Under the pieces are notes generated by a model that did not search any database, was not told where the DNA came from, and worked only from the letters and a program-made list of their open reading frames with translations. From an uncultured Sulfurospirillum sp. (GTDB lineage Bacteria > Campylobacterota > Campylobacteria > Campylobacterales > Sulfurospirillaceae), in contig CAYTVI010000005.1 of assembly GCA_964441765.1 (NCBI GenBank), positions 1 through 50,222 on the forward strand: DNA of 50,222 bases. Reading direction: 5' to 3'. Positions 1,113-47,440 of the stretch are shown piece after piece (position 1 is the stretch's first letter; each line of letters opens with the position of its first letter). Made by a program: the position numbers and the translations under genes.

Positions 1113-1595
1113 TTAGGGTAATGGTCTTAAGCGTATCAAAATACCATTTTTACTATCTTTAAAATAACGCATATCTCCCTCAACACGATACTCTATTTGT
1201 GCCGTTGGCAGATCAATCTTTTGAGCAAATCCTGTGAGGTGTGTTATCGTGTTTTTTCCCTCATATAAAGCTCTTTTATCAACGATATCTTCCATGAATG
1301 TGGCATAATGTTCTGTCCCAAAAAAACGCCTATTAAAATCTTCTTTTTCAAAGCATGTTCCATCAAGGCAGATGGTATCATTGATTTCCAAATTGAATAA
1401 AACAGAGCCTGCATTAAAAATTTGAAGTTGCGTATAACCCTTGCCTTGATTTAGAAATCCTGTATCGGACAGTGCCATTTGAGGTGTTTTAATTGTAATT
1501 AAGTAAGGCTGTGACAGAGTAATTGGCTGCTTAACACTGCATCCACTAAAAAGTATCAAAGTGATAAAAATCATTACATGTAAAAAATTTTTCAT
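1113..1595 (-). CDS. Hypothetical lipoprotein
   Basis: Signal peptide with lipobox FSGC; overlaps the upstream Fur-family gene by 4 nt. Confidence 0.75.
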
Positions 1596-1963
1596 GACTT
1601 ACACTCTTTACAAGTACCTTTTAAAACGATACTTTTGACCTCTGCATCCACAGGCCCTAAGTCGACATCCATGCAAGTGATTTGATGACAGGCTTCACAG
1701 ATAAAATGTGCATGTGTAGAGGTTGAAAGCTCAAAGTACCATTTGCGATCATCTGATTCAAATTTATGCACAATCCCTAGTTCTTCAAACTTGGCAACAT
1801 TACGATAAAACGTTGCTTTATCCATTACTTGTTCCATCTGCCCTTTTATCTGCTCATAACTCATAGGCGCTTTAGCTATTTTTAAAACGTCCAAAATCGC
1901 ACTTCGTGCCTCGGTTTTTTTAAGTCCATGATGCGCAAAAAGAGTATTTAAAAGTTCTGGCAT
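1592..1963 (-). CDS. Fur-family metalloregulator (Zur-like by context)
   Basis: GLKKTEAR..IL, ATFYRN, HAHFICEAC and C-terminal CKEC; divergent from metal ABC genes. Confidence 0.85.
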   Translation of the reverse strand: MPELLNTLFAHHGLKKTEARSAILDVLKIAKAPMSYEQIKGQMEQVMDKATFYRNVAKFEELGIVHKFESDDRKWYFELSTSTHAHFICEACHQITCMDVDLGPVDAEVKSIVLKGTCKECKS

Positions 1964-1985
1964 TCTTTCCTCTATCTTAGGTAAA

Positions 1986-2006
1986 TTTCATACAAAGTGT
2001 ATGAAA
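1986..2006. promoter_or_regulatory. 9-3-9 inverted repeat, candidate operator between the Fur-family gene and znuC
   Basis: TTTCATACA-aag-TGTATGAAA, perfect arms, in a divergent intergenic region. Confidence 0.45.
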
Positions 2007-2047
2007 GTAAGGCAATGGTATCCAAAGTTTTATTAAACTCCTTTTCA

Positions 2048-2056
2048 TGCTATAAT
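2048..2056 (+). promoter_or_regulatory. Extended -10 promoter of the znuCB-like operon (probably leaderless)
   Basis: TGcTATAAT ending 7 nt before ATG 2064; no SD sequence. Confidence 0.65.
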
Positions 2057-2063
2057 TTACTTC

Positions 2064-2831
2064 ATGAAAAATGACCTAGAAATTAAAAATGCTTCGTTTT
2101 ACTATGACAACACACTTATCCTTGATACTATCTCGTTTGAATATTCAAAACGTGATTTTCTCGCCATTATTGGACCCAATGGGGGTGGGAAAAGTACCTT
2201 ACTTAAGATGATGATTGGTCTGCTTGAACCTAGTGCTGGAAGTATTACACTCTTTGGAGAAAAACCTTTACATGTAAGCCATCGTATCGCTTATGTTCCA
2301 CAAGATACCTTAGCTAATAAAGACTTTCCGATAAAAGTGTTGGATGTCGTTTTAATGGGAAGACTCTCTCAATCAAAAGCCTTTTCAACCTACTCAAAAG
2401 AAGATAAAGCGATTGCCCGTGCGATGCTTGAAAAAGTAGGTATGCTCTCTTATGAAAATCAAAAAATACACGCCCTCTCAGGTGGTCAACGTCAAAGGGT
2501 TTTTGTCGCTCGTGCTCTGGCAAGTGAAGCGGAAATTCTCTTTTTAGATGAACCAACTGCGAGCATTGACACCGCAGGGCAAATTGAGATTTTTAAACTC
2601 TTAAAACAGCTTAATGAGCATGTTGGCATCGTCATTATTAGCCATGATGTCAATGTCGCTTTAAACTATGCTACCAAAGTCGTTCACGTTAACAAAACCC
2701 TCTATCTTCACGATGTTCCAAAACAAGAATCTTTCAAGTTCTTTGATTCACCAAGTGAGCATCTTTGCCCTATAGAGCTCATCAGCGCAACACGCTGCAC
2801 CCATATTCATCCTAAAGAGGCAAAATGCTAG
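2064..2831 (+). CDS. znuC: Zn/Mn ABC transporter ATP-binding protein
   Basis: GPNGGGKST, YVPQ, LSGGQRQR, LDEPT, SHD; His/Cys-rich tail. Confidence 0.85.
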   Translation: MKNDLEIKNASFYYDNTLILDTISFEYSKRDFLAIIGPNGGGKSTLLKMMIGLLEPSAGSITLFGEKPLHVSHRIAYVPQDTLANKDFPIKVLDVVLMGRLSQSKAFSTYSKEDKAIARAMLEKVGMLSYENQKIHALSGGQRQRVFVARALASEAEILFLDEPTASIDTAGQIEIFKLLKQLNEHVGIVIISHDVNVALNYATKVVHVNKTLYLHDVPKQESFKFFDSPSEHLCPIELISATRCTHIHPKEAKC

Positions 2832-3634
2832 ACGTTCTTCAATACGAATTTATGCAAAATGCCCTTGTTACATCGCTTATTGTTAGCCTGATATGCGGTA
2901 TTATTGGTACACTTATCGTGATTAACCGTATGGTTTTTATCGCTGGGGGCATTGCTCATGGCTCTTATGGTGGTATCGGACTTGCGCTTTATTTTGGTAT
3001 CGCTCCGATGCTCGGTGCTTCTGTTTTTGCTCTTTTTTTAGGACTTATTATTGCTATGATTACGCATCAAAACAGTACACGATTGGACTCTTTAATTGGA
3101 GTATTGTGGGCGTTTGGAATGGCATTAGGCATTATTATGAGCGATTTGACGCCTGGGTACAATGTCGATTTGATGAGTTATCTTTTTGGGGCTATTTTAT
3201 CGGTTTCACTTGAAGACATGATAGGCATGAGTGGGGTTTTACTCTTAACTATTGTCTTTACTGTACTCTTTTACAAACAACTTTTAGCCATGAGTTTTGA
3301 TGCGCAGTTTGCCAAACTTCGAGGGGTCAATGTAACCCTTCTTTACTTTGCATTGGTTGCACTCATCGCTTTAGGTGTGGTGATTATCATCCGTGCCGTT
3401 GGGCTTATTTTGGTGATTGCACTACTTACTATTCCACCCTATATTGCTGAAAAATTGACGAACTCTATGGGCGCAATGATGGCACTTTCATCATTGCTTT
3501 CTGCACTTTTTTGTTTTGTTGGGCTTAGCATTTCCTATGCGTTTGATGTCAGCAGTGGTGCTAGCATCATCTTGGTAGCCACCACGACTTTCTTCATACA
3601 ATTTTTAATTGGACATTTTTTTCATCGCTCGTGA
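2825..3634 (+). CDS. znuB: Zn/Mn ABC transporter permease (ABC-3 family)
   Basis: FMQNAL, IAHGSYGG, LMSYLFG, VGLILVIALL; multi-TM. Confidence 0.85.
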   Translation: MLDVLQYEFMQNALVTSLIVSLICGIIGTLIVINRMVFIAGGIAHGSYGGIGLALYFGIAPMLGASVFALFLGLIIAMITHQNSTRLDSLIGVLWAFGMALGIIMSDLTPGYNVDLMSYLFGAILSVSLEDMIGMSGVLLLTIVFTVLFYKQLLAMSFDAQFAKLRGVNVTLLYFALVALIALGVVIIIRAVGLILVIALLTIPPYIAEKLTNSMGAMMALSSLLSALFCFVGLSISYAFDVSSGASIILVATTTFFIQFLIGHFFHRS

Positions 3635-4533
3635 TGTGAATGTTTGCGCTTAAAAAACCATAGTGCGATGTAAGAACCTACTTCTGCTAGTAACATTCCG
3701 CTCAAAATCAGCCCTGCACCAAAGAGTTGTACGATGCTTAGCAACTCATCTGCAAAAAAGTATCCAAAAATACCAGCACTCACTGGCTCCATCGTAAAAA
3801 TAATGGCTGTTTTTGCCGCTGTTGTAAAACGCTGCATGGCTGTTTGTACCCAAAAAGCAAAAATGGTCGCAAATAGCACCGTAATCACAATCGCATTAAT
3901 CAATAATTCATCCACTTTTGCAGGCATAATCGTTCCTTCCATCGCCCATCCACCCAGTGCTGAACAAAAAGCAACGGTAAAAAATTGAACACACACCAAT
4001 AAAAAGATATTATGTCTTTTGGAAAGATGGTCGGTAAAAACAATGTGCAACGCAAACATCATCGCACAGATAAAAGCATAAAATTCTCCCAATGAAAAGC
4101 CTATTTCACTATTGAGAGTTAAATAATACAATCCAATAGCGGCAATAATTGCTCCTAGTACAGAATAGATAGACGCCTTATGCCTAAAAATAAGATACGA
4201 TGCGAAAGGGACAACGATAACGCTTAACCCTGTAATAAATCCGACAGTCGAAGAGTAGGTATAGGTCAACGCAAATGTTTGAAACGCATAACCTAAAAAC
4301 ATAAAAAGTCCAAGAACACCACCTGCTTTAAGAACTTCTTTGTCAAGAAATTTGAGATGTTTGTATGAAATCAACGTCATTAAAAGAGCGGCTAGAAAAA
4401 AACGCCAAAATAAAAAGGTGTAAACAGGTGTTTGCCCAACAGCATCTTGAACAATAAAAAATGTACTTCCCCATGCAACAGCCACTAAAAGCAATAAAAA
4501 ATCAGCGCCTATCTCTTTAAACTTATGATGCAT
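3622..4533 (-). CDS. DMT/EamA family transporter
   Basis: AWGSTF, two EamA repeats, FTMEPV; start likely MHHKFK (4533) after AAGGA. Confidence 0.9.
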   Translation of the reverse strand: MHHKFKEIGADFLLLLVAVAWGSTFFIVQDAVGQTPVYTFLFWRFFLAALLMTLISYKHLKFLDKEVLKAGGVLGLFMFLGYAFQTFALTYTYSSTVGFITGLSVIVVPFASYLIFRHKASIYSVLGAIIAAIGLYYLTLNSEIGFSLGEFYAFICAMMFALHIVFTDHLSKRHNIFLLVCVQFFTVAFCSALGGWAMEGTIMPAKVDELLINAIVITVLFATIFAFWVQTAMQRFTTAAKTAIIFTMEPVSAGIFGYFFADELLSIVQLFGAGLILSGMLLAEVGSYIALWFFKRKHSHHER

Positions 4534-4762
4534 CAAACCATTCCTTGCATTATGTATCTTCAAAATAAAAACGTGCATTTTAGCACAATGAAATCAGAAA
4601 ATATACTTTTAAAATAAAGAAAAATAACTACTTCTGTTTCCATAGAAAGATGTTTATCATCTCAAAACGTTCCATCCTGTAACGAAAGCTACTACAATCC
4701 CTTTATCCCTTGCTCTATCCTTAATGTTTTTTAAATTCCTTTATCTTACTTTTATATTCGAC

Positions 4763-4771
4763 TGCTACAAT
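4763..4771 (+). promoter_or_regulatory. Extended -10 of the amino acid ABC operon
   Basis: TGcTACAAT about 30 nt upstream of ATG 4803. Confidence 0.5.
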
Positions 4772-4802
4772 TATGGCTTACGTCATATTCTGAAAGGTTT
4801 TA

Positions 4803-5543
4803 ATGAGCCAACCCATCGTACGCATGGAAAATGTTGATAAGTATTATGGAGATTTTCATGTTTTAAAAAATATCAATTTCTCCGTCAGTGAAGGTGAAAT
4901 TGTTGTGATTTGTGGCCCAAGTGGCAGTGGTAAATCAACGCTTATTCGCTGTATTAACCGACTCGAAGAGATAGACAGCGGTGAAATTACCGTTGATGGC
5001 TACAATCTTTATTCAAAAAAAGTGGATATTAATCAAGTTCGTGCTGAAACTGGCATGGTTTTTCAGCACTTTAACCTCTTCCCACATCTTACGATTCTAG
5101 AAAACATAACCATTGCGCAACAAAAAGTTAAAAGAATGTCTAAGCATGATGCCAACGAAGCAGCACTAAAACTGCTTGAGCGTGTGGGGCTTGTCCACAA
5201 GGCAGAGGGCTATCCAAATGAGCTTAGTGGCGGACAAAAACAACGTGTTGCCATTGCTCGAACGCTTGCTATGAAACCTAAAATTATTTTATTTGATGAA
5301 CCTACTTCTGCCCTTGACCCGGAGATGATTGGTGGAGTTTTAGATGTTATGAGAGAACTTGCACACGAAAACTACACCATTATTTGTGTCACACATGAAA
5401 TGGGTTTTGCGAAGGAAGTATGTAACCGTGTTATCTTTATGGATGAGGGTTCCATCATTGAAGAAGCAACACCTGAAGAGTTTTTTGCTAACCCCAAAAC
5501 AACACGTGCACAGAAATTTTTACAAGAAGTATTAACGCATTAA
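4803..5543 (+). CDS. Polar amino acid ABC transporter ATP-binding protein (GlnQ-like)
   Basis: [47 protein letters not shown]. Confidence 0.95.
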
Positions 5544-5570
5544 AAAAACCAAACTTTATAAGGAGTCTGA

Positions 5571-6371
5571 ATGAAAAAGTTTTTAGCTGCATTACTTGTA
5601 ATGCTCGGCATCAATGCCATGGCTGATGATATCAACCTATGGCAAAAATCAACATTGAACAGTATTGTTCAAAAAGGTGTTTTAACCGTAGGATTAGAGC
5701 CTGGTTATATGCCTTTTGAGATGAAAGACAAACAAGGCAATATTATCGGCTTTGACGTTGATATGGCAAATGAGATGGCAAAAGCAATGGGTGTAAAACT
5801 CCAACTCGTCCCTACCGCTTGGGATGGCATTATTGCAGGCTTACTCACTGGTAAATATGACATTATCATGTCAGGTATGACCATTACGCAAGAGAGAAAT
5901 CTCAAAATCAACTTTGCAGACCCATACATCAGTGTTGGTCAAACCATTCTTGCACATAAAAAACATGCAGGTAAGAAATGGAGTGATTTGGATAAACCAG
6001 AATACACTATCGTTACAAAACTAGGTGTTACAGGTGAAATTGCAACCCGCAAAATGTTCAAAAAAGCAAAAATCAGAACGTTTGAAACTGAAGCTGACGC
6101 GGCACAAGAAGTTCTTAACGGTAATGCAGATGGCTTAGTGTATGACAAACCTTACAATGCTATCTTCTTCGCTGAAAAAGGCAAAGATAAGTTGGTTCAC
6201 ATGGATCAAGAACTTACCTATGAACCACTCGGTTGGGCGGTTAGAAAAGGTGATCCAGATTTTCTTAACTGGCTCAATAACTTCTTAAACCAAGCGAAAA
6301 ACGATGGTACTTACCAAAAAGTTTACGACAGATGGTTTAACGATACTGCATGGCAGAAAAAGGTACTCTAA
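5571..6371 (+). CDS. Polar amino acid ABC transporter substrate-binding protein
   Basis: Signal peptide; GFDVD, WDGIIAGL, SGMTIT.ER (SBP_bac_3). Confidence 0.93.
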   Translation: MKKFLAALLVMLGINAMADDINLWQKSTLNSIVQKGVLTVGLEPGYMPFEMKDKQGNIIGFDVDMANEMAKAMGVKLQLVPTAWDGIIAGLLTGKYDIIMSGMTITQERNLKINFADPYISVGQTILAHKKHAGKKWSDLDKPEYTIVTKLGVTGEIATRKMFKKAKIRTFETEADAAQEVLNGNADGLVYDKPYNAIFFAEKGKDKLVHMDQELTYEPLGWAVRKGDPDFLNWLNNFLNQAKNDGTYQKVYDRWFNDTAWQKKVL

Positions 6372-6374
6372 ATC

Positions 6375-7340
6375 GTGGCAAAAGAAAAACAACATCTTTT
6401 GCAAAATAAAGCATTTGGCCACGCTGTGGCCATTGCTTTTTATCTTGCAATAGGCTACTTACTCTTTACAGCAGCTTCCAATATGAATTATATTTGGAAG
6501 TGGACAAGCGTGCCAAAATACTTTGCCTATGAAAAAACAGATACACTCAATGCTCCTTTTGATGGAACCATTCAACTCAGTGGCACACGTCTTGTTTTAG
6601 AAGGACGTGATGATAGCAAAGAGATTGAAATTGACAAAGGTTTTTCTCTTTTGGTTAAACACGGTGATAGTGTTTATGAACACGATGCCATTGCTCAAAA
6701 AACGTATATGCAAATGGGACCTTTAGTTGAAGGCTTGATTGTTACCCTTCAAATTTCTGGGCTTTCTGCCATCTTAGCTTTTAGTATAGGCTTTTTACTC
6801 GCCCTTATGCGTATTTCAAGCTACCAATTTTTAAAAGATATTGCAACAGTTTATATTGCGATTATTAGAGGAACACCTCTTCTGGTGCAAATCTTTATTT
6901 TTTATTTTATCATCGCAACTATTTTTGAGCTAGAACGCTTTTTAGCAGGAGCAATATCATTAGGTCTCTTCTTTGGGGCTTATATTGCTGAGGTTTTACG
7001 TGGGGCTATTCAGTCTATCGATAAAGGACAATACGAAGCGGCTAAATCATTGGGCATGAATTATTTTCAAACCATGGTTTATATCGTTATGCCTCAAGCA
7101 CTCAAACGTTCATTACCAACACTAGTAGGTGAGATGATTGCACTTGTAAAAGACTCTTCACTGGTTTCTGTTATCTCTATTACAGACCTGACCAAAGTTG
7201 GTCGAGAAATCGTTGCCAACACCTTTTCGCCTTTTGAAACATGGCTGATTATTGCGGCTATGTATTTTGTGATAACTTTCTTACTCACAGCTCTTGGACA
7301 TAAAATTGAAATGAAGATGAAAAAACAAGGAGGGATGTAA
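6375..7340 (+). CDS. Polar amino acid ABC transporter permease (HisM family) with an extra periplasmic insert
   Basis: RGTPLLVQ, AYIAE..RG, GQYEAA.SLG, KDSSL; GTG start. Confidence 0.93.
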   Translation: MAKEKQHLLQNKAFGHAVAIAFYLAIGYLLFTAASNMNYIWKWTSVPKYFAYEKTDTLNAPFDGTIQLSGTRLVLEGRDDSKEIEIDKGFSLLVKHGDSVYEHDAIAQKTYMQMGPLVEGLIVTLQISGLSAILAFSIGFLLALMRISSYQFLKDIATVYIAIIRGTPLLVQIFIFYFIIATIFELERFLAGAISLGLFFGAYIAEVLRGAIQSIDKGQYEAAKSLGMNYFQTMVYIVMPQALKRSLPTLVGEMIALVKDSSLVSVISITDLTKVGREIVANTFSPFETWLIIAAMYFVITFLLTALGHKIEMKMKKQGGM

Positions 7341-7353
7341 AACATCTCTCCTT
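7327..7353. terminator. Hairpin between the convergent permease and PilZ genes
   Basis: AAGGAGGGATGT-aaa-ACATCTCTCCTT with a T run shortly after. Confidence 0.6.
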
Positions 7354-7359
7354 CCTTTT

Positions 7360-8499: not shown

Positions 8500-8534
8500 G
8501 GTATGTTCCAAACTTCAAGTTTTGTTAGATTATA

Positions 8535-12124: not shown

Positions 12125-12154
12125 TTACATGTAAGGATTCTTCCTTACATGTAA
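12125..12154. terminator. Hairpin terminator built from two TTACATGTAA copies
   Basis: TTACATGTAAGGA-ttct-TCCTTACATGTAA, perfect 13-bp stem between convergent akr and amtB. Confidence 0.75.
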
Positions 12155-20274: not shown

Positions 20275-21966
20275 ATGAAAATATCAACGCGTATTCTCAT
20301 CACATTAGTTCTTTCATTGGCGATTTTGGGAAGCACCATTATTGGTATTTCATACGTTAATACGCTGAAAAATGAGAAAATGTTTTTAGAAGAGTATCAA
20401 AAAAGCTCTTACGCTTTTTATGAAAATGAACTCAAAACCATCATGAGTATCGCGCATCAAACCTCGATGGCGATTTATAAAACACAAAAGGAAAAAGGCA
20501 TTCCTGATGAGAAAATCAAAGAGGCTATTTTAGATAAGTTTGATGAATTGCGTTTTTTTGATGATAAAAGTGGCTATATCTTTGTTTATGAGATGGATGG
20601 AACCAATGTGCTCCTTCCAACCAACAAAGCCCTTAAGGGTAAAAACATGATTGATGTGAAAGACTCCAAAGGGAAATTTTTTCTCAAAGAGCTTCTTGAA
20701 GCCGCTAAGAAAGGGGGAGGGATTGTTGGTTATGAATTTCCGAAAGTCAAAGATGGTCAGCCTTTCTTAAAATTCTCCTATTCAATACCCTTTGCACCCT
20801 ATAATTGGATGATGGGCACAGGCATTTATGTTGACAATGTCGAAACGGAGGTTGCAAAACTTCGTGCTCAAATTCATAATAACACGGTGGCGCAGATGAC
20901 CACATTTGTCATTATGTCCTTTGTCTTAATTCTTTTAGGTATTGCGATTACCCTTGTGATGGTACGCAAAACCATTACCACGCCACTGAATAAACTCATT
21001 GCAAGAGCAGACAATCTCTCCAGCGGTGATGGAGATTTGACCCGTACCTTAGAAGTTGAAGGGCATGATGAAATAGCCCAAGCTAGCCAAAGCATTAACC
21101 GTTTTATTGAGAAAGTGCGCATTCTTATTAGTGAGGCTAAAAATCTTGCCAATGAGAACTCTTCTATCTCCAATGAACTCTCATCGACCTCTTTACATGT
21201 AGGACGCTCCGTTGAAACTTCGATGGAAATCGTAGGCGAGACAACATCAAAAGCCAATACCCTCAAGAGTGAGATGTCAGAAGGTATGAATGAGGCAAAA
21301 CATGGCAAAGAAGAACTTTTAAAAGCCAATAGCTATCTCAAAGAAGCGAACAATGCCATTTTAGCACTCACAAGTGATATTCAGCAAAGTGCTGCAACAG
21401 AAATTGAGCTTGCACATAAAATCCAACAACTCAGCTCAGACGCGGCTCAAGTCAAAGATATTTTGGTTGTTATTGGTGATATTGCCGACCAAACAAACCT
21501 TTTAGCCCTCAATGCAGCGATTGAAGCGGCACGTGCGGGAGAGCATGGACGAGGATTTGCGGTTGTGGCTGATGAAGTACGCAAACTAGCAGAGCGTACA
21601 CAAAAGAGTTTACAAGAGATTAACGCAACGATTAATGTTATCGTTCAAGCCATTGTCGATAGCTCTGAGCAGATGACTGCCAATTCTAAAAAAGTTGAAT
21701 CTTTAGCTACGACAGCAAGTGGTGTCGAATCAAAAATCAACAATATGTTCAACGTTATGGGAAATGCAACAAAAGTTTCAGACAATACGGCTGAGAATTA
21801 CCTCAAAACAGGTAAAGATATCGAATATATGATTGATGGCGTTAGTAAAATCAATGAGATTTCCAGCCAAAATGCACGAAGCGTTGAAGAGATAGCCAGT
21901 GCGGCTGAACACCTCAGTCGTATGACAGAAACCCTTAACCTCAAACTTTCTGAATTTAGAACCTGA
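20275..21966 (+). CDS. Methyl-accepting chemotaxis protein with Cache sensor domain
   Basis: GYIFVY, KDSKG, W..GTGIYVD; HAMP; [31 protein letters not shown]. Confidence 0.96.
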
Positions 21967-22601: not shown

Positions 22602-23129
22602 CTAGTGAGCCATCTTTTTGTACACTTCTTTAAAGTGCTTCAGTTTAGGAGCAATGACAAACGAACAATACCCTTGATGAGGATTATTCTGAAAATAGTG
22701 CTGATGGTAGGCTTCTGCTTCGTAAAAATGAGGCAGGGGAAGAACCTCTGTAACAATAGGCTTCGTAAAGGCTTCTGAGGCTTTTTTTATTGAAGCTATC
22801 GCTATTTGTTTTTGCCTCTCATCATGGTAAAAAATTACTGAGCGGTACTGTGTACCTACATCATTCCCTTGGGCATTAAGTGTTGTAGGATCATGGATAA
22901 GCCAAAAGATTTTTAAAATTTCATCAAAAGAGATGATGGTCGTATCAAAAGTGATATGCACGACTTCCGCATGATGGGTCGTCCCACGACAGACTTGCTC
23001 ATACGTAGGATTTTCTACCTCACCTCCTGCATACCCACTGACAACCTCTATGACACCTTCTATTTGTGAAAAAATAGCTTCTAAACACCAAAAACATCCG
23101 CCACCTAATGTGATACTCTCATGCTTCAT
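22602..23129 (-). CDS. msrA: Peptide methionine sulfoxide reductase A
   Basis: GGGCFWC, GYAGG, HDPT, GTQYRS, AEAYHQ; start MKHES after AAGGAG. Confidence 0.96.
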   Translation of the reverse strand: MKHESITLGGGCFWCLEAIFSQIEGVIEVVSGYAGGEVENPTYEQVCRGTTHHAEVVHITFDTTIISFDEILKIFWLIHDPTTLNAQGNDVGTQYRSVIFYHDERQKQIAIASIKKASEAFTKPIVTEVLPLPHFYEAEAYHQHYFQNNPHQGYCSFVIAPKLKHFKEVYKKMAH

Positions 23130-23220
23130 ACGTTTCTCCTTGAAGAACTTTTTCATAATGTGATTGATTATAACACGTTACATGTAAATCACCCTTATGC
23201 CATTTTGAGTAATCAATTTA

Positions 23221-23229
23221 TGTTATAAT
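23221..23229 (+). promoter_or_regulatory. Extended -10 of the mla operon
   Basis: TGtTATAAT 24 nt before ATG 23254. Confidence 0.55.
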
Positions 23230-36508: not shown

Positions 36509-36871
36509 CTATAAAAATGCCTTAATTAAACATGCCCCCCAAACAACCACAAACAACACAATACTCAAAAACACAACCGCACTTCCTGCATCTTTTGCAC
36601 GACCAGCCATCTCGTGATATTCGAGTGTTACCAAGTCTGTCACGCGTTCTATAGCACTATTAATCGCTTCAGCTAAAGGCATTCCTAAAAGCGTTATAAA
36701 CATCAAAAGCTTATAAGAAAGTTCCAAAGGAATAAAAAAGATGACGGGTAAAAGGCATAAAACAATTATCATTTCTAAACGAAAAGAAGTTTCATTGGCA
36801 ATAATATCTTTTAATCCATTCAAGGCATAACGGGTATTTTTAAAAAAATGGTATTTAGGCTGATTTCTCAC
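36509..36871 (-). CDS. dgkA: Diacylglycerol kinase
   Basis: E.SFRLE, EAINSAIE...D, AKDAGSAVV. Confidence 0.93.
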   Translation of the reverse strand: MRNQPKYHFFKNTRYALNGLKDIIANETSFRLEMIIVLCLLPVIFFIPLELSYKLLMFITLLGMPLAEAINSAIERVTDLVTLEYHEMAGRAKDAGSAVVFLSIVLFVVVWGACLIKAFL

Positions 36872-38460
36872 TTATTTCCTTTTTTGGGAATTATATTTTT
36901 TGTTTTATCGTACAGACTTGTTTCTATCTCCATCAGACCTAAAATCGTATGAAAAAGATTGTCGTGGGAGTAGTCTAATGATGCTTTTTCTTTGAACTGT
37001 TCAAGATTGATTTTTTGCTTACTTTTTTCTCCAAGCCAGACAAAAGCGCCCACATGTGTCTGTTCTCGTGGTGCCATAAAATAGGGAATTCCATGCAGGT
37101 AAAGTCCTTTTTCGCCTAAAGATTCTCCATGGTCTGCCATGTATATCAATGCCGTTTCAAAACGCTCATCATTCTCTTTTAAAAATGCAATGGTTTTGGA
37201 GAGAAAATAGTCTGTGTACAAAATAGCATTATCATACGCATTGCCTATCTCTTCAGTAGTGCATTGTTCAACTTGGTTGGTTTGACACGTTGGGGTAAAA
37301 CGCTCATAGGCTTTGGGATAGCGCTTGTAGTAAGCAGGACCGTGATTGCCCATTTGATGCAACACAATCATCACATCTCCTTTTTGTGCATCGACATACG
37401 ATTGCAACCCTACTAACATTCCCTCATCACGACACTCTTCATCACAAAGCGTATTGGTTTTAGCGGTTCTAAAATCTTCATACGTCACACGTAATGCCAC
37501 ACCTTTGGAATCAGAGTTGTTATCGCGCCATAAAACACTCACCCCTGTATGCTTCAAAATGTCTAAAACATTTTCACTGTTCTTTGCCACTTTATCGCTG
37601 TAATTTTTACGCTCCAAATGTGAAAACATACAAGGAACCGATATTGCCGTTGAAGTTCCGCATGAAGAGATATTAGAAAGATTGATAATATCTTCTTTTT
37701 CTAACAAAGGATTGGTTTGACGCTCATAGCCATTGAGTGAAAAGCGGTTTGCGCGCGCTGCTTCACCCACAACAACAATGGTCAATTTACGAGTCTCAGG
37801 AGTTGATTTTACCAGCTTTGCATCTCTTCCTAAGGGTTGCAAGGTGTTGTCTCGCTTGTAAAATGTATCATGCACATATTTACCCGCGGAATAGAGATAA
37901 AAGGTAGGGTTCGTGTAAAAACGAAGAGGCTTATTTTCACGAAAAAATGATGTATAAAACTTACTAAAACTAAAAAGCATGATAACAATCATCAAAAGAC
38001 TTAGCACCACTCCTTTAAGCGTTGATGCGAGCTCTTGTCTAAATGTACCATAGCGTACCGGTAGCTTAAAGACGATAAAAGAAGGAATTACGCCCAATAA
38101 AAAAACATAAACAAAAAGCTTACTCGTTAAAAGGTCAAGCGATTCGTTCATATTGGTTTCAAGAGTGTTTTGAATCATCGTTTCATCAATAATCACATTG
38201 TACGTTTGCATAAAATAATTGGTAAACGAGGAGATGAGCAGTAAAAGTATCACAAAAGGTTTGAGTGTGTAGCGATTGGTTACCAACAAAAGAACAACGG
38301 TAATCACACAGAACAACACAACACCCAATGAAATAAGAAAACCTATATTTTCCCACGCAAGAGGATAAACAGTGGTTACTTTGATAAAAAATGTAAAATT
38401 ATCACAGCAAACAAAAAAAAGCGCTGTTGCTAAAATAAGTCCTAAACGTGAAAATATCAT
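36868..38460 (-). CDS. eptA: Lipid A phosphoethanolamine transferase (EptA/EptC family)
   Basis: VVGEAAR, SCGTSTA.SVPCMF, HQMGNHGP.Y, YDNAI.YTD, DHGESLGE. Confidence 0.92.
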   Translation of the reverse strand: MIFSRLGLILATALFFVCCDNFTFFIKVTTVYPLAWENIGFLISLGVVLFCVITVVLLLVTNRYTLKPFVILLLLISSFTNYFMQTYNVIIDETMIQNTLETNMNESLDLLTSKLFVYVFLLGVIPSFIVFKLPVRYGTFRQELASTLKGVVLSLLMIVIMLFSFSKFYTSFFRENKPLRFYTNPTFYLYSAGKYVHDTFYKRDNTLQPLGRDAKLVKSTPETRKLTIVVVGEAARANRFSLNGYERQTNPLLEKEDIINLSNISSCGTSTAISVPCMFSHLERKNYSDKVAKNSENVLDILKHTGVSVLWRDNNSDSKGVALRVTYEDFRTAKTNTLCDEECRDEGMLVGLQSYVDAQKGDVMIVLHQMGNHGPAYYKRYPKAYERFTPTCQTNQVEQCTTEEIGNAYDNAILYTDYFLSKTIAFLKENDERFETALIYMADHGESLGEKGLYLHGIPYFMAPREQTHVGAFVWLGEKSKQKINLEQFKEKASLDYSHDNLFHTILGLMEIETSLYDKTKNIIPKKGNK

Positions 38461-39372: not shown

Positions 39373-39870
39373 CTATTTTAAATTGGTAAAATTAACAGGG
39401 AAATCAAATTCACATTCACGAATCGCTTTAATCGCTTCTTGTAAATCATCTATCGATTTGCCCTCAACTCTCACAACATCTCCACGAATAGAGGCTTGCA
39501 CTTTGAGTTTCAAATCTTTAATCTCTTTGACAATTTTTTTAGCATCATCGCTTGAGATTGCATCTACAATGGAAACGGTCACTTTGATTTTAGAACCACC
39601 CGCTGGTTCGCGTTTGGTTTCTTTAAGAGCTTTGGACGATATTCCTCGTTTAATCGCTTCAGAAATCAACCCATCCACCATCGCATCTGCTTTAGAATCA
39701 GTCGTTGTTACCAAAGTAAAAGTTTTGGCTTTTTCATTGTGCTCAAACTCACACGTAATGCCTTTAAAATCCCATCGATTGGTAATGACTTTTTTTGCTT
39801 GCTCATAGGCATCTTTGAGCTTTTGCTTATCAATTTCTGCACTAATATCAAAACTGTGTTCTTTTGCCAT
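39373..39870 (-). CDS. yajQ: YajQ-family nucleotide/c-di-GMP-binding protein
   Basis: SFDIS, RWDFKG, KLKVQASI.GD.VRV.GK..DDLQ. Confidence 0.93.
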   Translation of the reverse strand: MAKEHSFDISAEIDKQKLKDAYEQAKKVITNRWDFKGITCEFEHNEKAKTFTLVTTTDSKADAMVDGLISEAIKRGISSKALKETKREPAGGSKIKVTVSIVDAISSDDAKKIVKEIKDLKLKVQASIRGDVVRVEGKSIDDLQEAIKAIRECEFDFPVNFTNLK

Positions 39871-39879
39871 AATTGCTCC

Positions 39880-40812: not shown

Positions 40813-40813
40813 C

Positions 40814-41998: not shown

Positions 41999-42627
41999 CA
42001 ACCTCCTGAACTAACAGGCGCACTTGATGGTGCTTTGGAAGCAGACGATGATGTTCCCGTATTGGAAGAACCAAAAAAACCACTGCTTTTAGAAGCACTA
42101 CTGGTTGCGCTTGTGCCAGCTGGTTTATTGAAACTACTTGTACTTCGACTATAGGCTTGAGGGCTTTTGTAGGTTGTAGCCCGTTGATTTTGATAATTTT
42201 GATTGTTGAAAAGTTTATTTCCGATCCAACTTCCTATCATCGCACCCGCAATACTAGAGAGTAAAATACCTCCTAATCCCATTTGTCCAGAACTTAAACT
42301 TGGATTCGTGAGTGCAGAGGTGTTATTATCAATTTTAGCAGCTTCATCTTTCACTAACTTATCAACCTCTTCTTGGCTTAAAATACGCTCTGTTCCATCA
42401 ACACTACGCACAATAATACGTGTCGTGGAACTTGGGTATTCTTCAGCTATTTTATACTCACCCGGTGCTACTTCATCAACAATAACCAAAGCACCTTGTG
42501 TTTTAGCAGCTTCTTTCAAAACATTTTCTTGATTATCTTTTTGTTCGCATCCTTGCATTGAAGCAATGACCATGACGCCAATACCACCTGCAATCATATA
42601 ATCTGAAATTTTACGTACGTATTTCAT
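41998..42627 (-). CDS. UPF0323 family lipoprotein
   Basis: Lipobox-like MQGC; YKI.EEYP; AM.GSWIGNKLF; Ser-rich SGFFG tail. Confidence 0.85.
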   Translation of the reverse strand: MKYVRKISDYMIAGGIGVMVIASMQGCEQKDNQENVLKEAAKTQGALVIVDEVAPGEYKIAEEYPSSTTRIIVRSVDGTERILSQEEVDKLVKDEAAKIDNNTSALTNPSLSSGQMGLGGILLSSIAGAMIGSWIGNKLFNNQNYQNQRATTYKSPQAYSRSTSSFNKPAGTSATSSASKSSGFFGSSNTGTSSSASKAPSSAPVSSGG

Positions 42628-42634
42628 AATGACT

Positions 42635-43351
42635 CTATTCTCCTAATATCTCTTTGAGTTTTTTACCTTTTTTGATGAATAATTTTCCATTTTTATCCAT
42701 AACATCATGAGCATATCCCACTTTTTTACCTAAGGTATCACTGATCTGTTGTTTTTCTTTTTTAGAAAATCCTTTTTCTTTAAGATAGCTTCTCAAATCT
42801 CGCCAATCGCTGTAAGATTGAAAAATATCCTCTTCTTTTTCATCATTTTCTTCTTCCAATACATCCGCTTCTTCAACATATTCATTTAAAGAAGAGTTGT
42901 TCTCTGGATAAGAATTTGTTTGGGGTTTAACGCAAGGTGCAGGAGAAGCTTCTGAAGAAGCAAATGCTATTTGCCTGTTAGCTAACGATAAGATTGTTTT
43001 GAGTTGTTCATCTCGCTCTTTATAAATTGCTTCGATTTTTTCTTTTGATTCAATCAAAAGTCTCTCTTTATCAGCAATTAAACGCTCTTTATCGGCCTCT
43101 AAACGCTCATTTTTAAGCTTTATCTCTTCTAACTGTGTTTTTAAAAGCTCTATATAAGCGCCATCTACATTCGTCTCGATTTTACGAGATGTGGCATGGG
43201 TTTCTTTGTGCGTATTTTTAGAAAAGAGAATGTACTTCACACCTTCTTCAACCACACACTGCAAGGTTCCTCTGCGTAATCGATTGTAAATTGCCTCTTT
43301 ACTAACGTTCATTAATTTGGCTGCTTCGATAACCGTAAGCTTTTTATCCAT
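42635..43351 (-). CDS. HTH plus coiled-coil DNA-binding protein
   Basis: N-terminal LTVIEAAKLMNVSKEAIYNRLRRG (MerR/Xis-type HTH); heptad region with tandem ADKERL; acidic linker; basic C-terminus. Confidence 0.75.
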   Translation of the reverse strand: MDKKLTVIEAAKLMNVSKEAIYNRLRRGTLQCVVEEGVKYILFSKNTHKETHATSRKIETNVDGAYIELLKTQLEEIKLKNERLEADKERLIADKERLLIESKEKIEAIYKERDEQLKTILSLANRQIAFASSEASPAPCVKPQTNSYPENNSSLNEYVEEADVLEEENDEKEEDIFQSYSDWRDLRSYLKEKGFSKKEKQQISDTLGKKVGYAHDVMDKNGKLFIKKGKKLKEILGE

Positions 43352-43452
43352 GCTGCGTCCTTTATGACTAACGATGAAGAGATTGAAGGTATTATGTTAT
43401 CACAGATTTAATTAGTTTTGTTTGAGGAAGGATTTGTGAGGAAAAATAAAGA

Positions 43453-43476
43453 AGCCAAGAAGCTAACTTCTTGGCT
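43453..43476 (-). terminator. rpsU terminator
   Basis: AGCCAAGAAG-ctaa-CTTCTTGGCT with T-rich tail on the minus strand. Confidence 0.8.
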
Positions 43477-43483
43477 GTGTGTG

Positions 43484-43696
43484 TTAGAGTCTTGACTCGT
43501 AACGGCGAAGCATATACAAACGTTTAAGCTGTTTTTTGCGAGCACTAATTTTATCTTTTTTGCGTTTTTCCGTTGCTGTTTCATAGAAACGTCTTGCACG
43601 CACTTCAGTGACAACTAGGTTACGATCAACTTGCTTTTTAAACTTGCGATACGCTTCGTCAAACGATTCATTGGGGTGTACTTTAATCCCTGGCAT
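43484..43696 (-). CDS. rpsU: 30S ribosomal protein S21
   Basis: [25 protein letters not shown]; 70 aa. Confidence 0.97.
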
Positions 43697-43812
43697 ACTC
43701 TATCCACCACCTTTCTGAATGAATTTAGGGTGGAAGTATAGCTAAACAGCTTTACATGTAAGCTTAAAAAAGATAGTTAGGAGAAAAATTGACGATAAAA
43801 TAATAATATATC

Positions 43813-43841
43813 TTGACTTTCTACGTCATTCAATGTATACT
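43813..43841 (+). promoter_or_regulatory. Sigma70-type promoter of the resolvase-like/ccoG operon
   Basis: TTGACT-17 nt-TATACT. Confidence 0.65.
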
Positions 43842-43875
43842 TTCGTCAAACAAATGATAAAAAGGTGACAATTTC

Positions 43876-44571
43876 ATGAATATTGTACTCTTAAAAAACC
43901 GTGTTGATGAGCCAAATATCACTGTTCAGCAAAAACAGATTATGAAATATGCGCACCATCACAATCTTAAAATCGATACCACAGAAATAGAAAACTCCAA
44001 CCCTTTGCTTGAGCTTGAAGAACGAAAAGAATTTAAAGGCTTTTTACGTTCTTTAGAAACGGGTGATCATCTTCTTATTTTTGATATAACAACATTTTCA
44101 GAATCTGTGGAAGAACTGGTCAAGGTATTTGAGTGTCTTCTCAAACGTTCCATTTCTGTCCATCTTGCTGAGTGTAATACGCTGATAGAAACCAATACAA
44201 AACCTCTTATCTTATTAGAACTTCTTTGTAAACAACGTGAACTTAATAAACAACTTGAAAAAGAAAAAGCACAAGGAAGACCAAAAGGAAGAATGTCTAA
44301 GTCTAAATTTGATATTTATAGGCCACGCGTGATTGAACTCTTAGAAGCAAAAACATCTGTCAGTGAAATCGCTAAAATTTTAGGTGTTAGTCGAACCTCA
44401 TTAAAAGATTATATTAATTCGCGAGGTCTTAAAGATTTAGTTAAAGCCAAAATATCTCTTTTGAAATCACCTAAAAAACATGCTATCTCAATTAAATCAA
44501 AACCTCCGAAAGAGTGCTCTTTAATCAAAGATATCGCTCTTCAACCACAAGGAAATTCGCATGCAATGTAG
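43876..44571 (+). CDS. Resolvase/serine-recombinase-like protein, catalytic motifs degenerate, with C-terminal HTH
   Basis: Q...I..YA, R.EF..L..GD.L resolvase-like pattern; GRPKG; SVSEIAKILGVSRTSL HTH. Confidence 0.7.
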   Translation: MNIVLLKNRVDEPNITVQQKQIMKYAHHHNLKIDTTEIENSNPLLELEERKEFKGFLRSLETGDHLLIFDITTFSESVEELVKVFECLLKRSISVHLAECNTLIETNTKPLILLELLCKQRELNKQLEKEKAQGRPKGRMSKSKFDIYRPRVIELLEAKTSVSEIAKILGVSRTSLKDYINSRGLKDLVKAKISLLKSPKKHAISIKSKPPKECSLIKDIALQPQGNSHAM

Positions 44572-45922
44572 TACAACCACTCCTATTTATTACCGTAAAA
44601 AACGCTATTTTACGTTTGGTATCATCACTCTTATTTCATTAATTCTCCCTTTTATTCGTATTGAAGGAAATCACTTTTTTTTACTGAGCTTTGATAAAAA
44701 ACAGTTGCATCTCTTGTTTACTACTTTTGATATGCAAGAGCTCTATTTGATGCCTTTTATTCTGATGCTTCTCTTTTTAGGCATCTTTTTTATGACTACT
44801 TTAGGAGGTCGTGTTTGGTGTGGGTGGTCCTGTCCTCAAACAATCTTCCGTGTCATTTATCGCGACCTTATTGAAACAGCACTTCTTGGTATTCATAAAA
44901 GTATTAAAAATAAACAAAAAGATGATAATGCAGGTAATTCGTTTAAAAAGATAATTGCTCTTCTTATTTGGTCACTCTTAGCTTTTGTTGCCGCATCTAA
45001 CTTTTTATGGTATTTCATACCTCCTGAAGATTTTTTCCAGTATCTCAAAGAACCTACCGAACACAGTGTCATGTATGGATTTTTACTCGGTGTTGCGCTC
45101 TTTTTAATTTACGATATTGTCTCCTTGAAAGAAAATTTTTGTGTCTATATTTGCCCTTATGCGCGTATTCAATCTGTTTTATTTGATGAAAATACCCTCC
45201 AAACAATTTATGATGAAAAACGTGGCGGTAAAATTTTTGATGCAAAAGGAACTAAACTTAGCTCTAAACCACCATTAGAAACAGATGATTGTACAGGATG
45301 CGAAGCCTGCGTCCGTATCTGCCCAACACACATTGATATTCGAAAAGGTATGCAATTAGAATGTATTAATTGTTTAGAATGTGCCGATGCTTGTACGCCG
45401 GTTATGGAAAAGTTAGGTAAGCCGTCTTTAATTACATGGACAAGTTCTAACGCTATTGAAAAAAATGCCACAACACAATATTTTCGATTTAGAACTATCG
45501 CTTACGGCGTAGCATTAACTTTAGCACTCATTGGTCTTTTTATCATGGGTAGCAAAAAAGAGTATATGCTCTTAAACATCAACCGTCCAAGTCAGCTTTA
45601 CAAAATCTTAGATGATGGTAAAACTGTTGAAAATGCTTATACCTTTTTATTCCAAAATACTGATACTAAAGACCATATGTATTATTTTGATATTTCACAC
45701 AACGATATCATCATTGATAAACCAAGTGAGCCTTTCTTGCTCAAAGCGGGTGAAAAAATGAAAAAAATCGTTCTTTTAACCTCTGTTCCTAAAGAGATTA
45801 AAGCAGAAGGCGAAGCTCTTCCCATTGAAATTAAAGCGTATGCAACAGATGAGAAAGAAAAAATTGTGATTACACGAAAAACTATCTTCATTTACCCTAA
45901 AAAAGCTGACTACTCACGCTAA
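44561..45922 (+). CDS. ccoG: cbb3 oxidase accessory protein CcoG/FixG
   Basis: GRVWCGWSCPQT, FCVYICPY, CTGCEACVRICP, CINCLECADAC. Confidence 0.95.
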   Translation: MQCSTTTPIYYRKKRYFTFGIITLISLILPFIRIEGNHFFLLSFDKKQLHLLFTTFDMQELYLMPFILMLLFLGIFFMTTLGGRVWCGWSCPQTIFRVIYRDLIETALLGIHKSIKNKQKDDNAGNSFKKIIALLIWSLLAFVAASNFLWYFIPPEDFFQYLKEPTEHSVMYGFLLGVALFLIYDIVSLKENFCVYICPYARIQSVLFDENTLQTIYDEKRGGKIFDAKGTKLSSKPPLETDDCTGCEACVRICPTHIDIRKGMQLECINCLECADACTPVMEKLGKPSLITWTSSNAIEKNATTQYFRFRTIAYGVALTLALIGLFIMGSKKEYMLLNINRPSQLYKILDDGKTVENAYTFLFQNTDTKDHMYYFDISHNDIIIDKPSEPFLLKAGEKMKKIVLLTSVPKEIKAEGEALPIEIKAYATDEKEKIVITRKTIFIYPKKADYSR

Positions 45923-45931
45923 ATACTTCAA

Positions 45932-45959
45932 TTAGGATAGAGATTTTTCTCTATCCTAA
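45932..45959 (+). terminator. Hairpin after ccoG
   Basis: TTAGGATAGAGA-tttt-TCTCTATCCTAA followed by CTTTT. Confidence 0.7.
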
Positions 45960-45976
45960 CTTTTACAGGAGACGCA

Positions 45977-46930
45977 ATGATACATTCAACACGTTTAGCA
46001 CATTTCCCTATTATGATGTTTGCGATCACAATGGGGCTTTCAGGGCTCACCATTGTTTATCAAAAAGCCACTTTATGGCTAGGGGTCCCCTCTTTTATCA
46101 GTATTGTTCTAACCATCCTTGTTACGCTTATTTTTTCTATAATTGCATCACTATATGTTCTTAAAATATTCTTCCATTTAGACGCTGTACGAAATGAATT
46201 TAACCATCCTATTCGTATTAATTTTTTTGCTGCTGTCTCAATTTCATTGCTACTTCTCTCTATTGTCTACCATGAAATTTCAATCACTTTTTCTTCTATT
46301 TTATGGTATATTGGCGCCAGTTTACAAACTTTTTTTACGTTTTACACTATCAATTTTTGGATTACAAAAAATATGGAAATCACACATTCAAATCCTGCAT
46401 GGTTTATTCCTATTGTGGGTAATGTGATTGTGCCTATTGGAGGCGAAAGCTTTGCTCCTTTAGCTATACTCATCTATTTTTTTGCGGTGGGTATCTTTTT
46501 TTGGATTGTTTTAATGCCTATTATCATCAATCGTATCATTTTCCATCATCAATTAGCGCAAAAGTTCATTCCTACTCTATTTATATTCATAGCACCACCA
46601 TCGGTCAGTGTTCTAAGCTATGTTAAGCTCACAGGAAACTTTGATTTTTTTGCTTCATTGCTTTACAGTATAGGGCTCTTTTTTACACTTCTATTGCTAT
46701 TTAGAATTAAAGATTTTATTAAACTTCCATTTTTTATATCGTGGTGGGCTTTTACATTTCCTCTAGCAGCTATGACTATTGCTTCACTGGTTGTATACCA
46801 TACAACGCACACTCTTTTTTATAGCTATATTGCGCATTTTTTGATTTTAGCAACAACACTTATTATTTTCATTGTGGGATATAAAACACTTTATCATATG
46901 ACTAAGAAAGAGATTTGTATAGCGGAGTAA
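45977..46930 (+). CDS. SLAC1/TehA (TDT) family anion transporter
   Basis: F...MGL.G, HP.R.NFF, NPAWFIP.VG, FI.IAPP, SWWAFTFPLAA. Confidence 0.9.
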   Translation: MIHSTRLAHFPIMMFAITMGLSGLTIVYQKATLWLGVPSFISIVLTILVTLIFSIIASLYVLKIFFHLDAVRNEFNHPIRINFFAAVSISLLLLSIVYHEISITFSSILWYIGASLQTFFTFYTINFWITKNMEITHSNPAWFIPIVGNVIVPIGGESFAPLAILIYFFAVGIFFWIVLMPIIINRIIFHHQLAQKFIPTLFIFIAPPSVSVLSYVKLTGNFDFFASLLYSIGLFFTLLLLFRIKDFIKLPFFISWWAFTFPLAAMTIASLVVYHTTHTLFYSYIAHFLILATTLIIFIVGYKTLYHMTKKEICIAE

Positions 46931-46943
46931 GAAGAAAGCTAAG

Positions 46944-46971
46944 TAGGAGATGGCTTATAAACCATCTCCTA
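46944..46971. terminator. Bidirectional terminator
   Basis: TAGGAGATGG-cttataaa-CCATCTCCTA between convergent TDT gene and rplT. Confidence 0.75.
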
Positions 46972-46985
46972 TTAAACTAAAAGTA

Positions 46986-47339
46986 TTAGAGGGCAGCTTT
47001 TGCTTGTTTTACAACAATTGCAAATGCTTCAGGGTCATTCATCGCCATATCTGCAAGAATTTTTCTATCTAAATCAATATTGGCTTTATTAAGAGCGTTA
47101 ATAAAACGTGAATAACTGATGTCGTTTAGTCTGCACGCTGCATTGATACGTGTGATCCAGAGTCTTCTAAAATCTCTTTTTTTCTGTCTTCTGTCTCTAA
47201 ATGCATAGACCATACTTCTTTCAAGTTGTTCTTTCGCTTTTCTAAAGTGTTTTCTTCTTCCACTAAAGAAACCTCTTGCCAACTTTAAAATCTTCTTGTG
47301 ACGTCTTCTTCTGACGATACCTGTTTTTACTCTTGCCAT
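46986..47339 (-). CDS. rplT: 50S ribosomal protein L20
   Basis: [33 protein letters not shown]; 117 aa; AAGGAG RBS. Confidence 0.98.
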
Positions 47340-47345
47340 GGTGTC

Positions 47346-47440
47346 TCCTTGACCAAATAAATCAATGTCGGTGTCCCGCACGGGAACTTGCCCTCACTCA
47401 GGAGGGGAACATTACATGTAGGGTGAATGACTCTTGTCAA
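47346..47440 (-). ncRNA. Candidate structured cis-RNA (L20 leader-like) between rpmI and rplT
   Basis: Nested pairings UUGAC/GUCAA, AAUGUU/GACAUU, CCCUC/GAGGG, UCCC/GGGA; outer stem abuts the rplT RBS. Confidence 0.4.

Follow-up and report, generated by a model that had tools for sequence, protein, structure and literature searches.

The window analyzed here is a 50,222-nucleotide stretch of DNA from an uncultured Sulfurospirillum sp. (contig CAYTVI010000005.1 of assembly GCA_964441765.1, positions 1 to 50,222 of the forward strand); it is contig C5 of a 2.0-Mb genome (G000) that is 88% complete and divided into 113 contigs. Its genes are ordinary Campylobacterota housekeeping and signaling genes, and dispersed within and between them are copies of a ten-base palindrome, TTACATGTAA. 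A first-pass annotation, made from the letters of the window, had proposed that this word is a genome-wide cis-element comparable to the highly iterated palindromes (HIPs) of cyanobacteria, to DNA uptake sequences or to chromosome-organizing sites. The motif is real, lineage-wide and apparently undescribed: our literature search found no description of TTACATGTAA in bacteria among the matches listed, with most subscription papers and REBASE outside its scope, and supplements of genome-wide word surveys might list the motif.

Copies of the motif in the window

The counts made at first reading hold. The window carries 21 perfect copies and five one-base variants (three CTACATGTAA and two TTACATGTAG) that span positions 1574-47421 (Table 1); all 26 TACATGTA octamers match YTACATGTAR, eight copies extend to the twelve-base TTTACATGTAAA, and seven further ACATGT hexamers occur. 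The GC content, earlier put at about 38%, is 38.3%. The claimed enrichment of about 100-fold was right in kind and too small in size, since dinucleotide shuffles of the window contain a mean of 0.06 TTACATGTAA and none of 100 reached the observed 21.

Nine of the 26 copies had been called intergenic, a figure that is about right. By our own gene calls, ten are not wholly within a gene, or 11 if a dubious 35-codon frame (23121-23228) is rejected, and intergenic DNA makes up 6.3% of the window. The one close pair in Table 1 folds at a z score of about -5 on both strands and, judged by its sequence, is likely a bidirectional terminator; a consensus terminator scan gave no call at this pair. The orthologous site in a motif-poor relative, G011, has an unrelated GC-rich hairpin.

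Table 1. Motif copies in the window, with positions taken from the sequence and context from our own gene calls; strand is given as "."
Element	Position	Strand	Context
TTACATGTAA	1574..1583	.	Intergenic, 8 nt past stop of Fur/PerR-family gene
TTACATGTAA	2268..2277	.	Within metal ABC ATPase gene, codes L-H-V
TTACATGTAA	8870..8879	.	Within histidine kinase gene, L-H-V
TTTACATGTAAA	9950..9959	.	Within response regulator gene, F-T-C-K
TTACATGTAA	10354..10363	.	Within pyrC, L-H-V
TTACATGTAA	10762..10771	.	Within pyrC, L-H-V
TTACATGTAA pair (12125-12134, 12145-12154)	12125..12154	.	13-bp hairpin, convergent aldo-keto reductase/ammonium transporter gap
TTACATGTAA	13346..13355	.	Overlaps ammonium transporter gene start
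TTTACATGTAAA	18160..18169	.	Within unnamed gene, F-T-C-K
Variant TTACATGTAG	21193..21202	.	Within chemoreceptor gene, L-H-V
TTTACATGTAAA	22589..22598	.	Fills 17-nt gap of convergent genes
TTACATGTAA	23178..23187	.	Divergent msrA-mlaE gap; inside dubious short frame
TTACATGTAA	27541..27550	.	Within histidine kinase gene, L-H-V
TTTACATGTAAA	28459..28468	.	Within histidine kinase gene, L-H-V
TTTACATGTAAA	30626..30635	.	Between GGDEF regulator and kinase genes; in kinase frame if upstream GTG start used
TTTACATGTAAA	32558..32567	.	Within malate synthase G gene, L-H-V
TTACATGTAA	33634..33643	.	Within malate synthase G gene, I-T-C-K
Variant CTACATGTAA	33974..33983	.	Within malate synthase G gene, L-H-V
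Variant CTACATGTAA	34379..34388	.	Within malate synthase G gene, L-H-V
TTTACATGTAAA	38509..38518	.	Divergent intergenic gap
TTACATGTAA	39033..39042	.	Convergent gap, 3 nt past stop
TTTACATGTAAA	39993..40002	.	Within 2-hydroxyacid dehydrogenase gene, L-H-V
Variant CTACATGTAA	41983..41992	.	Within glutathionylspermidine-synthase-like gene, L-H-V
TTACATGTAA	43752..43761	.	Divergent gap upstream of rpsU
Variant TTACATGTAG	47412..47421	.	Between called rplT and infC frames

Abundance and form across the genome

The genome contains 920 perfect copies of TTACATGTAA, where an order-3 Markov model expects 2.5, an over-representation of the kind that defines HIP-class palindromes. The mean spacing is about one copy per 2,000 letters, the density is similar on nearly all contigs, and the same DNA was found in other samples in four metagenome runs. 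Genome-wide, 1016 of 1073 octamers match YTACATGTAR. Single changes at inner positions occur at about background frequency and those at outer positions are enriched: one-mismatch words number 226 against 85 expected, two-mismatch words stand at 0.89-fold, and the variants CTACATGTAA, GTACATGTAA and CTACATGTAG occur 96, 39 and 0 times (reverse complements included). The motif is a perfect palindrome of which both halves are required; its two flanks vary independently, positions +5 to +8 are AT-rich on both sides, and the flank shared among copies ends about 2-3 bases out. The need for both halves, the independent flanks and the AT-rich outer positions together suggest, as far as sequence can tell, a symmetric reader.

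CATG is under-represented outside the motif (0.71), and GATC is avoided (0.19). Strong avoidance in this genome also extends to GGCC, CCGG and GAATTC, and methylases matching these words or GATC were not found in the assembly. In a relative, G021, it is ATGCAT that is almost missing (loci L099-L104).

Placement of copies

Our caller predicts 2,052 genes in the genome, by which 645 copies are genic, 273 intergenic and two partial, with intergenic DNA amounting to 5.9%. Synonymous-codon shuffling, the null proposed in the first-pass annotation, leaves a mean of 52 genic copies over 20 shuffles, a 12-fold excess for the real genes. The proteome is bent accordingly: the tripeptides L-H-V and T-C-K are enriched 5.6-fold and 7.2-fold, with reversed controls at 0.7-0.8, and 489 of 559 L-H-V occurrences are encoded by the motif. 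Such use of permissive coding positions with tripeptide enrichment is typical of the DNA uptake sequences (DUS) of Neisseriaceae and the uptake signal sequences (USS) of Pasteurellaceae. Copies run evenly along genes, and their spacing is more even than random (coefficient of variation 0.867 vs 0.946 +/- 0.030; 498 of 500 shuffles were exceeded and 2 of 500 were as even). The widest gaps between copies coincide with a Mu-like prophage, an antiporter cluster of low GC, a formate dehydrogenase region and the ribosomal protein operon.

Convergent gaps are densest in the motif, with 7.2 sites/kb, followed by co-directional (2.2) and divergent gaps (1.7), the genome as a whole having 0.5. Thirty-nine close pairs lie within 37 bp, 29 of them at 20-29 bp, where 4.6 are expected. 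Of these pairs 32 are intergenic, 31 of which stand no more than 60 nt past a stop codon, and 25 have extra stem pairs, so that, as in DUS and USS, inverted copies form stem-loops after genes. Of seven distinct two-copy 3' ends in this genome, five still fold in G011 and the pair is kept in none; at one G011 3' end, a compensatory double change destroys both copies. From folds that persist without the pairs, we infer that motif-pair hairpins are co-opted terminators and that something else maintains the word.

The same observations bear on three other possible identities of the motif: transcription-factor operator, terminator element and mobile repeat like the repetitive extragenic palindromes. 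Such an origin would suit the 30% of copies that are intergenic and the hairpins that some pairs form. It is largely refuted and in our view hardly credible: 70% of copies lie within genes, intergenic density is lowest in divergent promoter gaps, pairs make up just 39 among about 1,000 copies, no flank is shared past about 2-3 bases, and no orthologous G011 3' end keeps its pair, although five of seven still fold.

Chromosomes are also organized through palindromic protein sites, namely matS/MatP, SBS/SlmA, NBS/Noc and ram/RacA, which number in the tens and are confined to or excluded from a sector. The present motif, in contrast, numbers about 1,000 copies and favors no sector. On the complete chromosome of G017, 77 plus-strand copies of a sampled 12-mer, GTTACATGTAAA, fall into five bins as 14/20/17/12/14 (p 0.64), and neither sector bias nor an origin-terminus gradient is seen. 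This even spread, which the first-pass annotation had named as a point to check, removes the matS/ram reading.

Parts of the acquired DNA are poor in the motif, whereas a plasmid keeps octamers (see below). The prophage (G000:C23:1-26141), which we take to be Mu-like from the look of its genes (repressor, transposase, Gam-like and tail genes), has three perfect copies in 26 kb, and unshared genes of three genomes have four copies in 38.6 kb. All five octamers of the prophage lie in its first 11.5 kb, the remaining 14.6 kb having none. A scan of viral sequences for paired copies returned 23 loci, none motif-rich except one local repeat: in an AT-rich viral contig (L313:1760-7200), eight copies lie within local TTTACAC/TGTAAA repeats, an arrangement suggestive of an unrelated array of origin or operator type.

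Spread among relatives

Records named Sulfurospirillum share the same octamer and methylase family, and all 24 sampled congeners have 49-1,496 copies each. Across 300 Campylobacterales genomes, three genera of the window's own family have 49-1,496 copies and a fourth has 5-15; in a second family (f16; presumably Sulfurimonadaceae, a guess of ours), six of 26 genomes have 32-589, and the remaining 248 genomes, from 24 other families, have 0-9. A wider set of 91 f16 genomes divides into 27 rich in the octamer (80-1,780) and 64 poor (no more than 61), the rich being those with at least 80 octamers and more than 2.5 times the count of the reversed word, a cut chosen after the counts were seen. Around one core the outer letters are genus-specific, as judged from 27- to 200-kb samples: position +2 is A in the window's own genus and mostly G in g61 and g86, and g87 has A then T. 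The proposal of a genome-wide, lineage-wide cis-element is thus borne out by the 920 copies, by three of the four genera of the family and by part of a second family.

The motif-poor relatives G011, G021 and G014 have the same octamer still as their top or near-top palindrome, and a search of 160, 120 and 87 kb of them, respectively, found no replacement word.

The CATG methylase

A single D12-class methylase gene (G000:C32:3181-4161) is present in the genome, and a scan of the assembly found no N6_N4 and no C5 methylases. The product has the D12-class fold, the catalytic DPPY and homologues among enzymes that are paired with IceA/NlaIII nucleases, which places it with M.NlaIII/M.HpyI-type methylases. 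It is 50% identical to the product of a Neisseria lactamica gene that adjoins an IceA/NlaIII-family nuclease; a search of the window's genome for such a nuclease gave no match, and none of the solved structures matched the methylase. Many loci with intact NlaIII-type methylase-nuclease pairs strongly avoid CATG. Tables S3 and S4 of PMC4752239 give for Sulfurospirillum barnesii a type II N6-methyladenine (m6A) enzyme, M.Sba3II, with 99.1% of CATG methylated and no cognate nuclease listed there. We infer that this enzyme is an orthologue of the methylase studied here, and methylation of CATG is predicted for our genome by homology.

Distribution ties the enzyme to the motif. Of 26 congeners, 14 with the ancestral methylase copy have 376-534 motifs/Mb. 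The 12 without it range over 19-481 and include all ten congeners with fewer than 300 motifs/Mb. These densities use rounded genome sizes, the copy in G008 spans an assembly gap, and G002 and G022 are incomplete. The methylase site is cleanly empty in G011, G001 and G175. In f16, a homologue occurs in 23 of the 27 rich and seven of the 64 poor genomes, partial and distant matches included; the nominal p of 1e-11 overstates the association because kin are not independent. As in the HIP class, an orphan methylase site is thus generally present where the motif abounds, with exceptions described below. The link to a CATG adenine methylase that had been suspected is supported by this co-distribution and by the S. 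barnesii methylome.

A methylase with ten-base specificity is not supported, given the near-complete CATG methylation in S. barnesii. Among full-length Campylobacterales homologues, an altered C-terminal loop occurs in motif-rich genomes only; it is not a requirement, several motif-rich genomes having an ordinary loop. The neighbors of the methylase gene vary between lineages and none is common, which leaves no candidate partner gene. In one decayed clade, a different solitary methylase copy has as its nearest relative the nuclease-paired copy of the same clade, and this relationship suggests a re-recruitment.

Several side observations concern the enzyme family. The solitary methylases of motif-rich lineages (L002-L014, L121, L134, L136, L372-L386) are fast-evolving, and their C-terminal loop is replaced where nuclease-paired relatives keep it. 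In nine loci without IceA, CATG methylases are preceded by a 210-aa gene without a Pfam match (L069:2131-2763, L085:9339-9980), which probably encodes another kind of CATG nuclease. The plasmid NZ_CP059996.1 carries a CATG-methylase homologue (L111:1692-2732) whose 3' end is cut by an IS21 element; the gene contains four octamers as two pairs about 39 bp apart.

The link to an orphan methylase would also fit a ratchet of methyl-directed repair or mutation, which would make and restore the motif without any selected function, as in Elhai's model for HIP. Deviations at outer positions, as described for HIP1 (PMC4390886), and the enrichment of plasmid DNA agree with this model. We nevertheless consider it improbable: the S. 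barnesii enzyme marks all CATG, yet only the ten-base context is enriched and other CATG is depleted; a search of the genome, 88% complete, for signature peptides gave MutS2 but neither MutL nor MutS1; and even spacing is not predicted.

Conservation and decay of sites

In orthologous genes, 53 of 58, 28 of 44, 30 of 46 and 26 of 36 sites are kept in four genome pairs, where codon conservation predicts 6.7, 3.0, 2.8 and 1.9. Sites are therefore conserved 8- to 14-fold over codon-matched expectation, as in the HIP class, and the protein segments that flank kept sites are variable (63% identity vs 77-79% for whole genes).

Motif-poor G011 departs in the opposite direction, keeping none of 37 sites in comparison with G018 (5.3 expected) and 3 of 154 in comparison with the window's genome (10.0 expected). 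Many of the lost sites are just one or two changes from the motif, and these near misses indicate that the motif was lost in G011. On a thrS tree, the drops in density fall in three to five lineages of the genus, two of them in an unresolved node, and they reach 5- to 25-fold in close relatives that stay ordinary free-living genomes.

The shortfall of kept sites in G011, as if unused copies were costly, is one of three observations that would agree with a protective self-mark in defence, by which a system attacks DNA that lacks the motif or its methylation; the others are the depleted prophage and the derivation of the methylase family from restriction-modification. This explanation seems to us very improbable. 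A cognate nuclease was not found in the window's own genome, no motif-rich phage appeared among the 23 viral loci with paired copies, and restriction drives avoidance, as it does for CATG beside intact NlaIII-type pairs.

Competence genes and the search for a reader

Competence genes are present: ComEC, DprA, a secretin-ATPase-platform cluster, minor pilins and, ahead of priA, a pilin in the place that Cj0683 occupies in C. jejuni (PMC10046745). As in the RAATTY/CtsM system, an orphan m6A methylase acting on the signal thus accompanies Cts-type competence genes, the methylation here being predicted.

The first-pass annotation had also proposed a dedicated binder or uptake receptor, and this part was not substantiated: we searched among pilins, the tip protein, competence genes and the genes lost from G011 and found none. 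The MshQ-like tip protein, FimT/MshC-like pilin, major pilin and priA-linked pilin (the last aligned for eight genomes) are present regardless of the motif and hypervariable, and no feature of theirs was seen that would single one out as the reader. In a screen of gene loss in G011 (760 kb, about 30%), only the methylase was missing among recognizable DNA-acting genes at syntenic sites. Failure to find a reader fits one that was kept after loss of the mark and, equally, an unlinked cytoplasmic protein. As a separate observation, the FimT/MshC-like pilin (L117:4650-5384, L155-L184) and MshQ-like tip protein (L349-L353) are mosaic, with alleles apparently common to different families and tip N-termini wholly different among congeners.

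An abundant dimeric cytoplasmic protein, such as a nucleoid organizer or a replication, repair or recombination factor, might use the motif as a chromosome-wide site, with binding tuned by CATG methylation, as has been proposed for HIP1. The palindrome has the form expected of a site for a DNA-bending dimer, with both half-sites needed, outer letters independent and symmetric, and AT-rich flanks; the even spacing and the strong conservation of sites also suit it, competence genes persist in motif-decayed genomes, and HIP1 is itself conserved and periodic (PMC5861425), its period being 10-90 kb. We consider this account doubtful, though to be taken seriously. Against it stand the steep falls in density in ordinary free-living close relatives, the methylase as the sole recognizable DNA-acting gene missing from the compared part of G011, and the lack of an origin-terminus gradient in G017.

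Comparison with known systems

HIP1 (GCGATCGC) and the alternate HIPs are likewise iterated palindromes within and between genes, conserved beyond codon constraint (PMC4390886, PMC5861425, PMC13756078, bioRxiv 2024.09.10.611283); they too have an orphan methylase site at the center and deviations at outer positions, and transformation is a leading candidate for their function. The present motif differs as an AT-rich 10-12-mer in Campylobacterota, with one m6A CATG methylase instead of GATC and CGATCG enzymes, a strong intergenic bias, terminator-like pairs and repeated recent losses in one genus. HIP1 proper, a different word from a different phylum (cyanobacteria), was rejected as an identity; GATC is avoided here and a C5 methylase was not found.

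DUS and USS likewise comprise about 1,000 copies of a 10-mer with inverted terminator pairs (PMC3630211, PMC2817400, PMC1939737), placement at permissive protein positions, enriched tripeptides and lineage variants around a fixed core. They are also scarce in acquired DNA, as the present motif is in the prophage and unshared genes, though not in a plasmid that keeps octamers. The motif differs from them in being palindromic and methylase-linked, and a co-varying pilin was not found. The methylated RAATTY/CtsM system of C. jejuni belongs to the same order and has a comparable competence apparatus of the type II/IV pilus kind, priA-linked pilin included (PMC10046745, bioRxiv 2024.09.10.611283); RAATTY is likewise the palindromic m6A site of an orphan methylase. 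That degenerate 6-mer equals its methylase site, whereas the word enriched here is six bases longer than its own methylase site, which means that specificity has to come from a separate reader. In this genome, RAATTY words as a class show no enrichment. We class the motif as a HIP-class element working like an uptake sequence and as a member of neither HIP1 nor DUS/USS, since it lacks a defining feature of each.

Proposed function

We give about an even chance to the reading that the motif is a methylation-linked self-DNA signal for natural transformation. We favor it because the anatomy matches DUS and USS except for palindromy and because the two palindromic precedents, RAATTY in C. jejuni (PMC10046745) and HIP1 (bioRxiv 2024.09.10.611283), affect transformation in their methylated form. 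The central CATG of TTACATGTAA would be adenine-methylated by the solitary M.NlaIII-type enzyme, which would supply the mark and not the ten-base specificity. A probably two-fold symmetric reader would then prefer TTACATGTAA during natural transformation, at uptake or at a step just after. Biased uptake or recombination would return motif-bearing alleles to the chromosome by molecular drive; copies would accumulate where sequence is free, in variable protein segments, 3' gaps and terminator stems, and would decay once methylation or reading is lost.

A number of points weigh against the self-DNA signal. Neither pilins nor the tip protein followed the motif across rich and poor genomes. ComEC was found in each of 46 genomes, among them motif-poor ones, and lost competence was therefore rejected as an explanation of decay. 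Our search, which covered a small part of the matching literature, found no report of natural competence in Sulfurospirillum. The uptake sequences of Neisseria and Haemophilus are non-palindromic and read by a pilin, whereas this motif is palindromic. The density of the motif is not highest in genes common to all genomes compared, and a Sulfurospirillum plasmid has 14 octamers in 40 kb, just four of them perfect 10-mers. The enzyme and the motif also part company. In G020, G150, G159 and G297, with 340-934 perfect copies, a D12 methylase was not found, and G020 and its sister G002 are without the whole methylase locus at 389 and 481 motifs/Mb. Conversely, G068, G124, G063, G079, G324 and G356 have a full-length homologue and few motifs. 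The rich genomes without the enzyme argue against a strict need for methylation, and the methylase as the only cause of the motif is rejected, being neither sufficient nor strictly necessary. Finally, any selection that ignores position would produce most of these hallmarks too.

Somewhat short of an even chance is the wider proposal that a further Campylobacterota uptake-signal system exists, in which a 10-12-bp palindrome and a methyl mark are read by a symmetric receptor, a CATG methylase was domesticated from restriction systems several times, and the lineages that lost the motif are natural knock-outs.

Significance

The purpose of HIP1-type palindromes has been open for 30 years. Here, one word joins traits of HIPs (palindrome, orphan methylase) with traits of DUS (terminator pairs, bent proteome, dialects). 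Harmless cultured bacteria carry it, and their close sister genomes have either retained or lost it, so uptake assays and comparisons of gene content can test function and reader directly. Were it a true uptake signal, YTTACATGTAAR would be the logo expected of taken-up DNA, and a methylated copy placed on DNA could open genetics in dechlorinating and sulfur-cycling Campylobacterota. DUS/USS, RAATTY and HIP1 would then be joined in one principle, with highly iterated palindromes as methylated uptake watermarks.

Other features of the window

Two genes of the window deserve a brief record. Positions 36868-38460 (-) encode an EptA-type phosphoethanolamine-lipid A transferase with 43-46% identity to MCR-family plasmid proteins, under all MCR cut-offs. 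A serine recombinase-like gene with a weak Mpi match lies at 43876-44571 (+), in housekeeping surroundings before ccoG.

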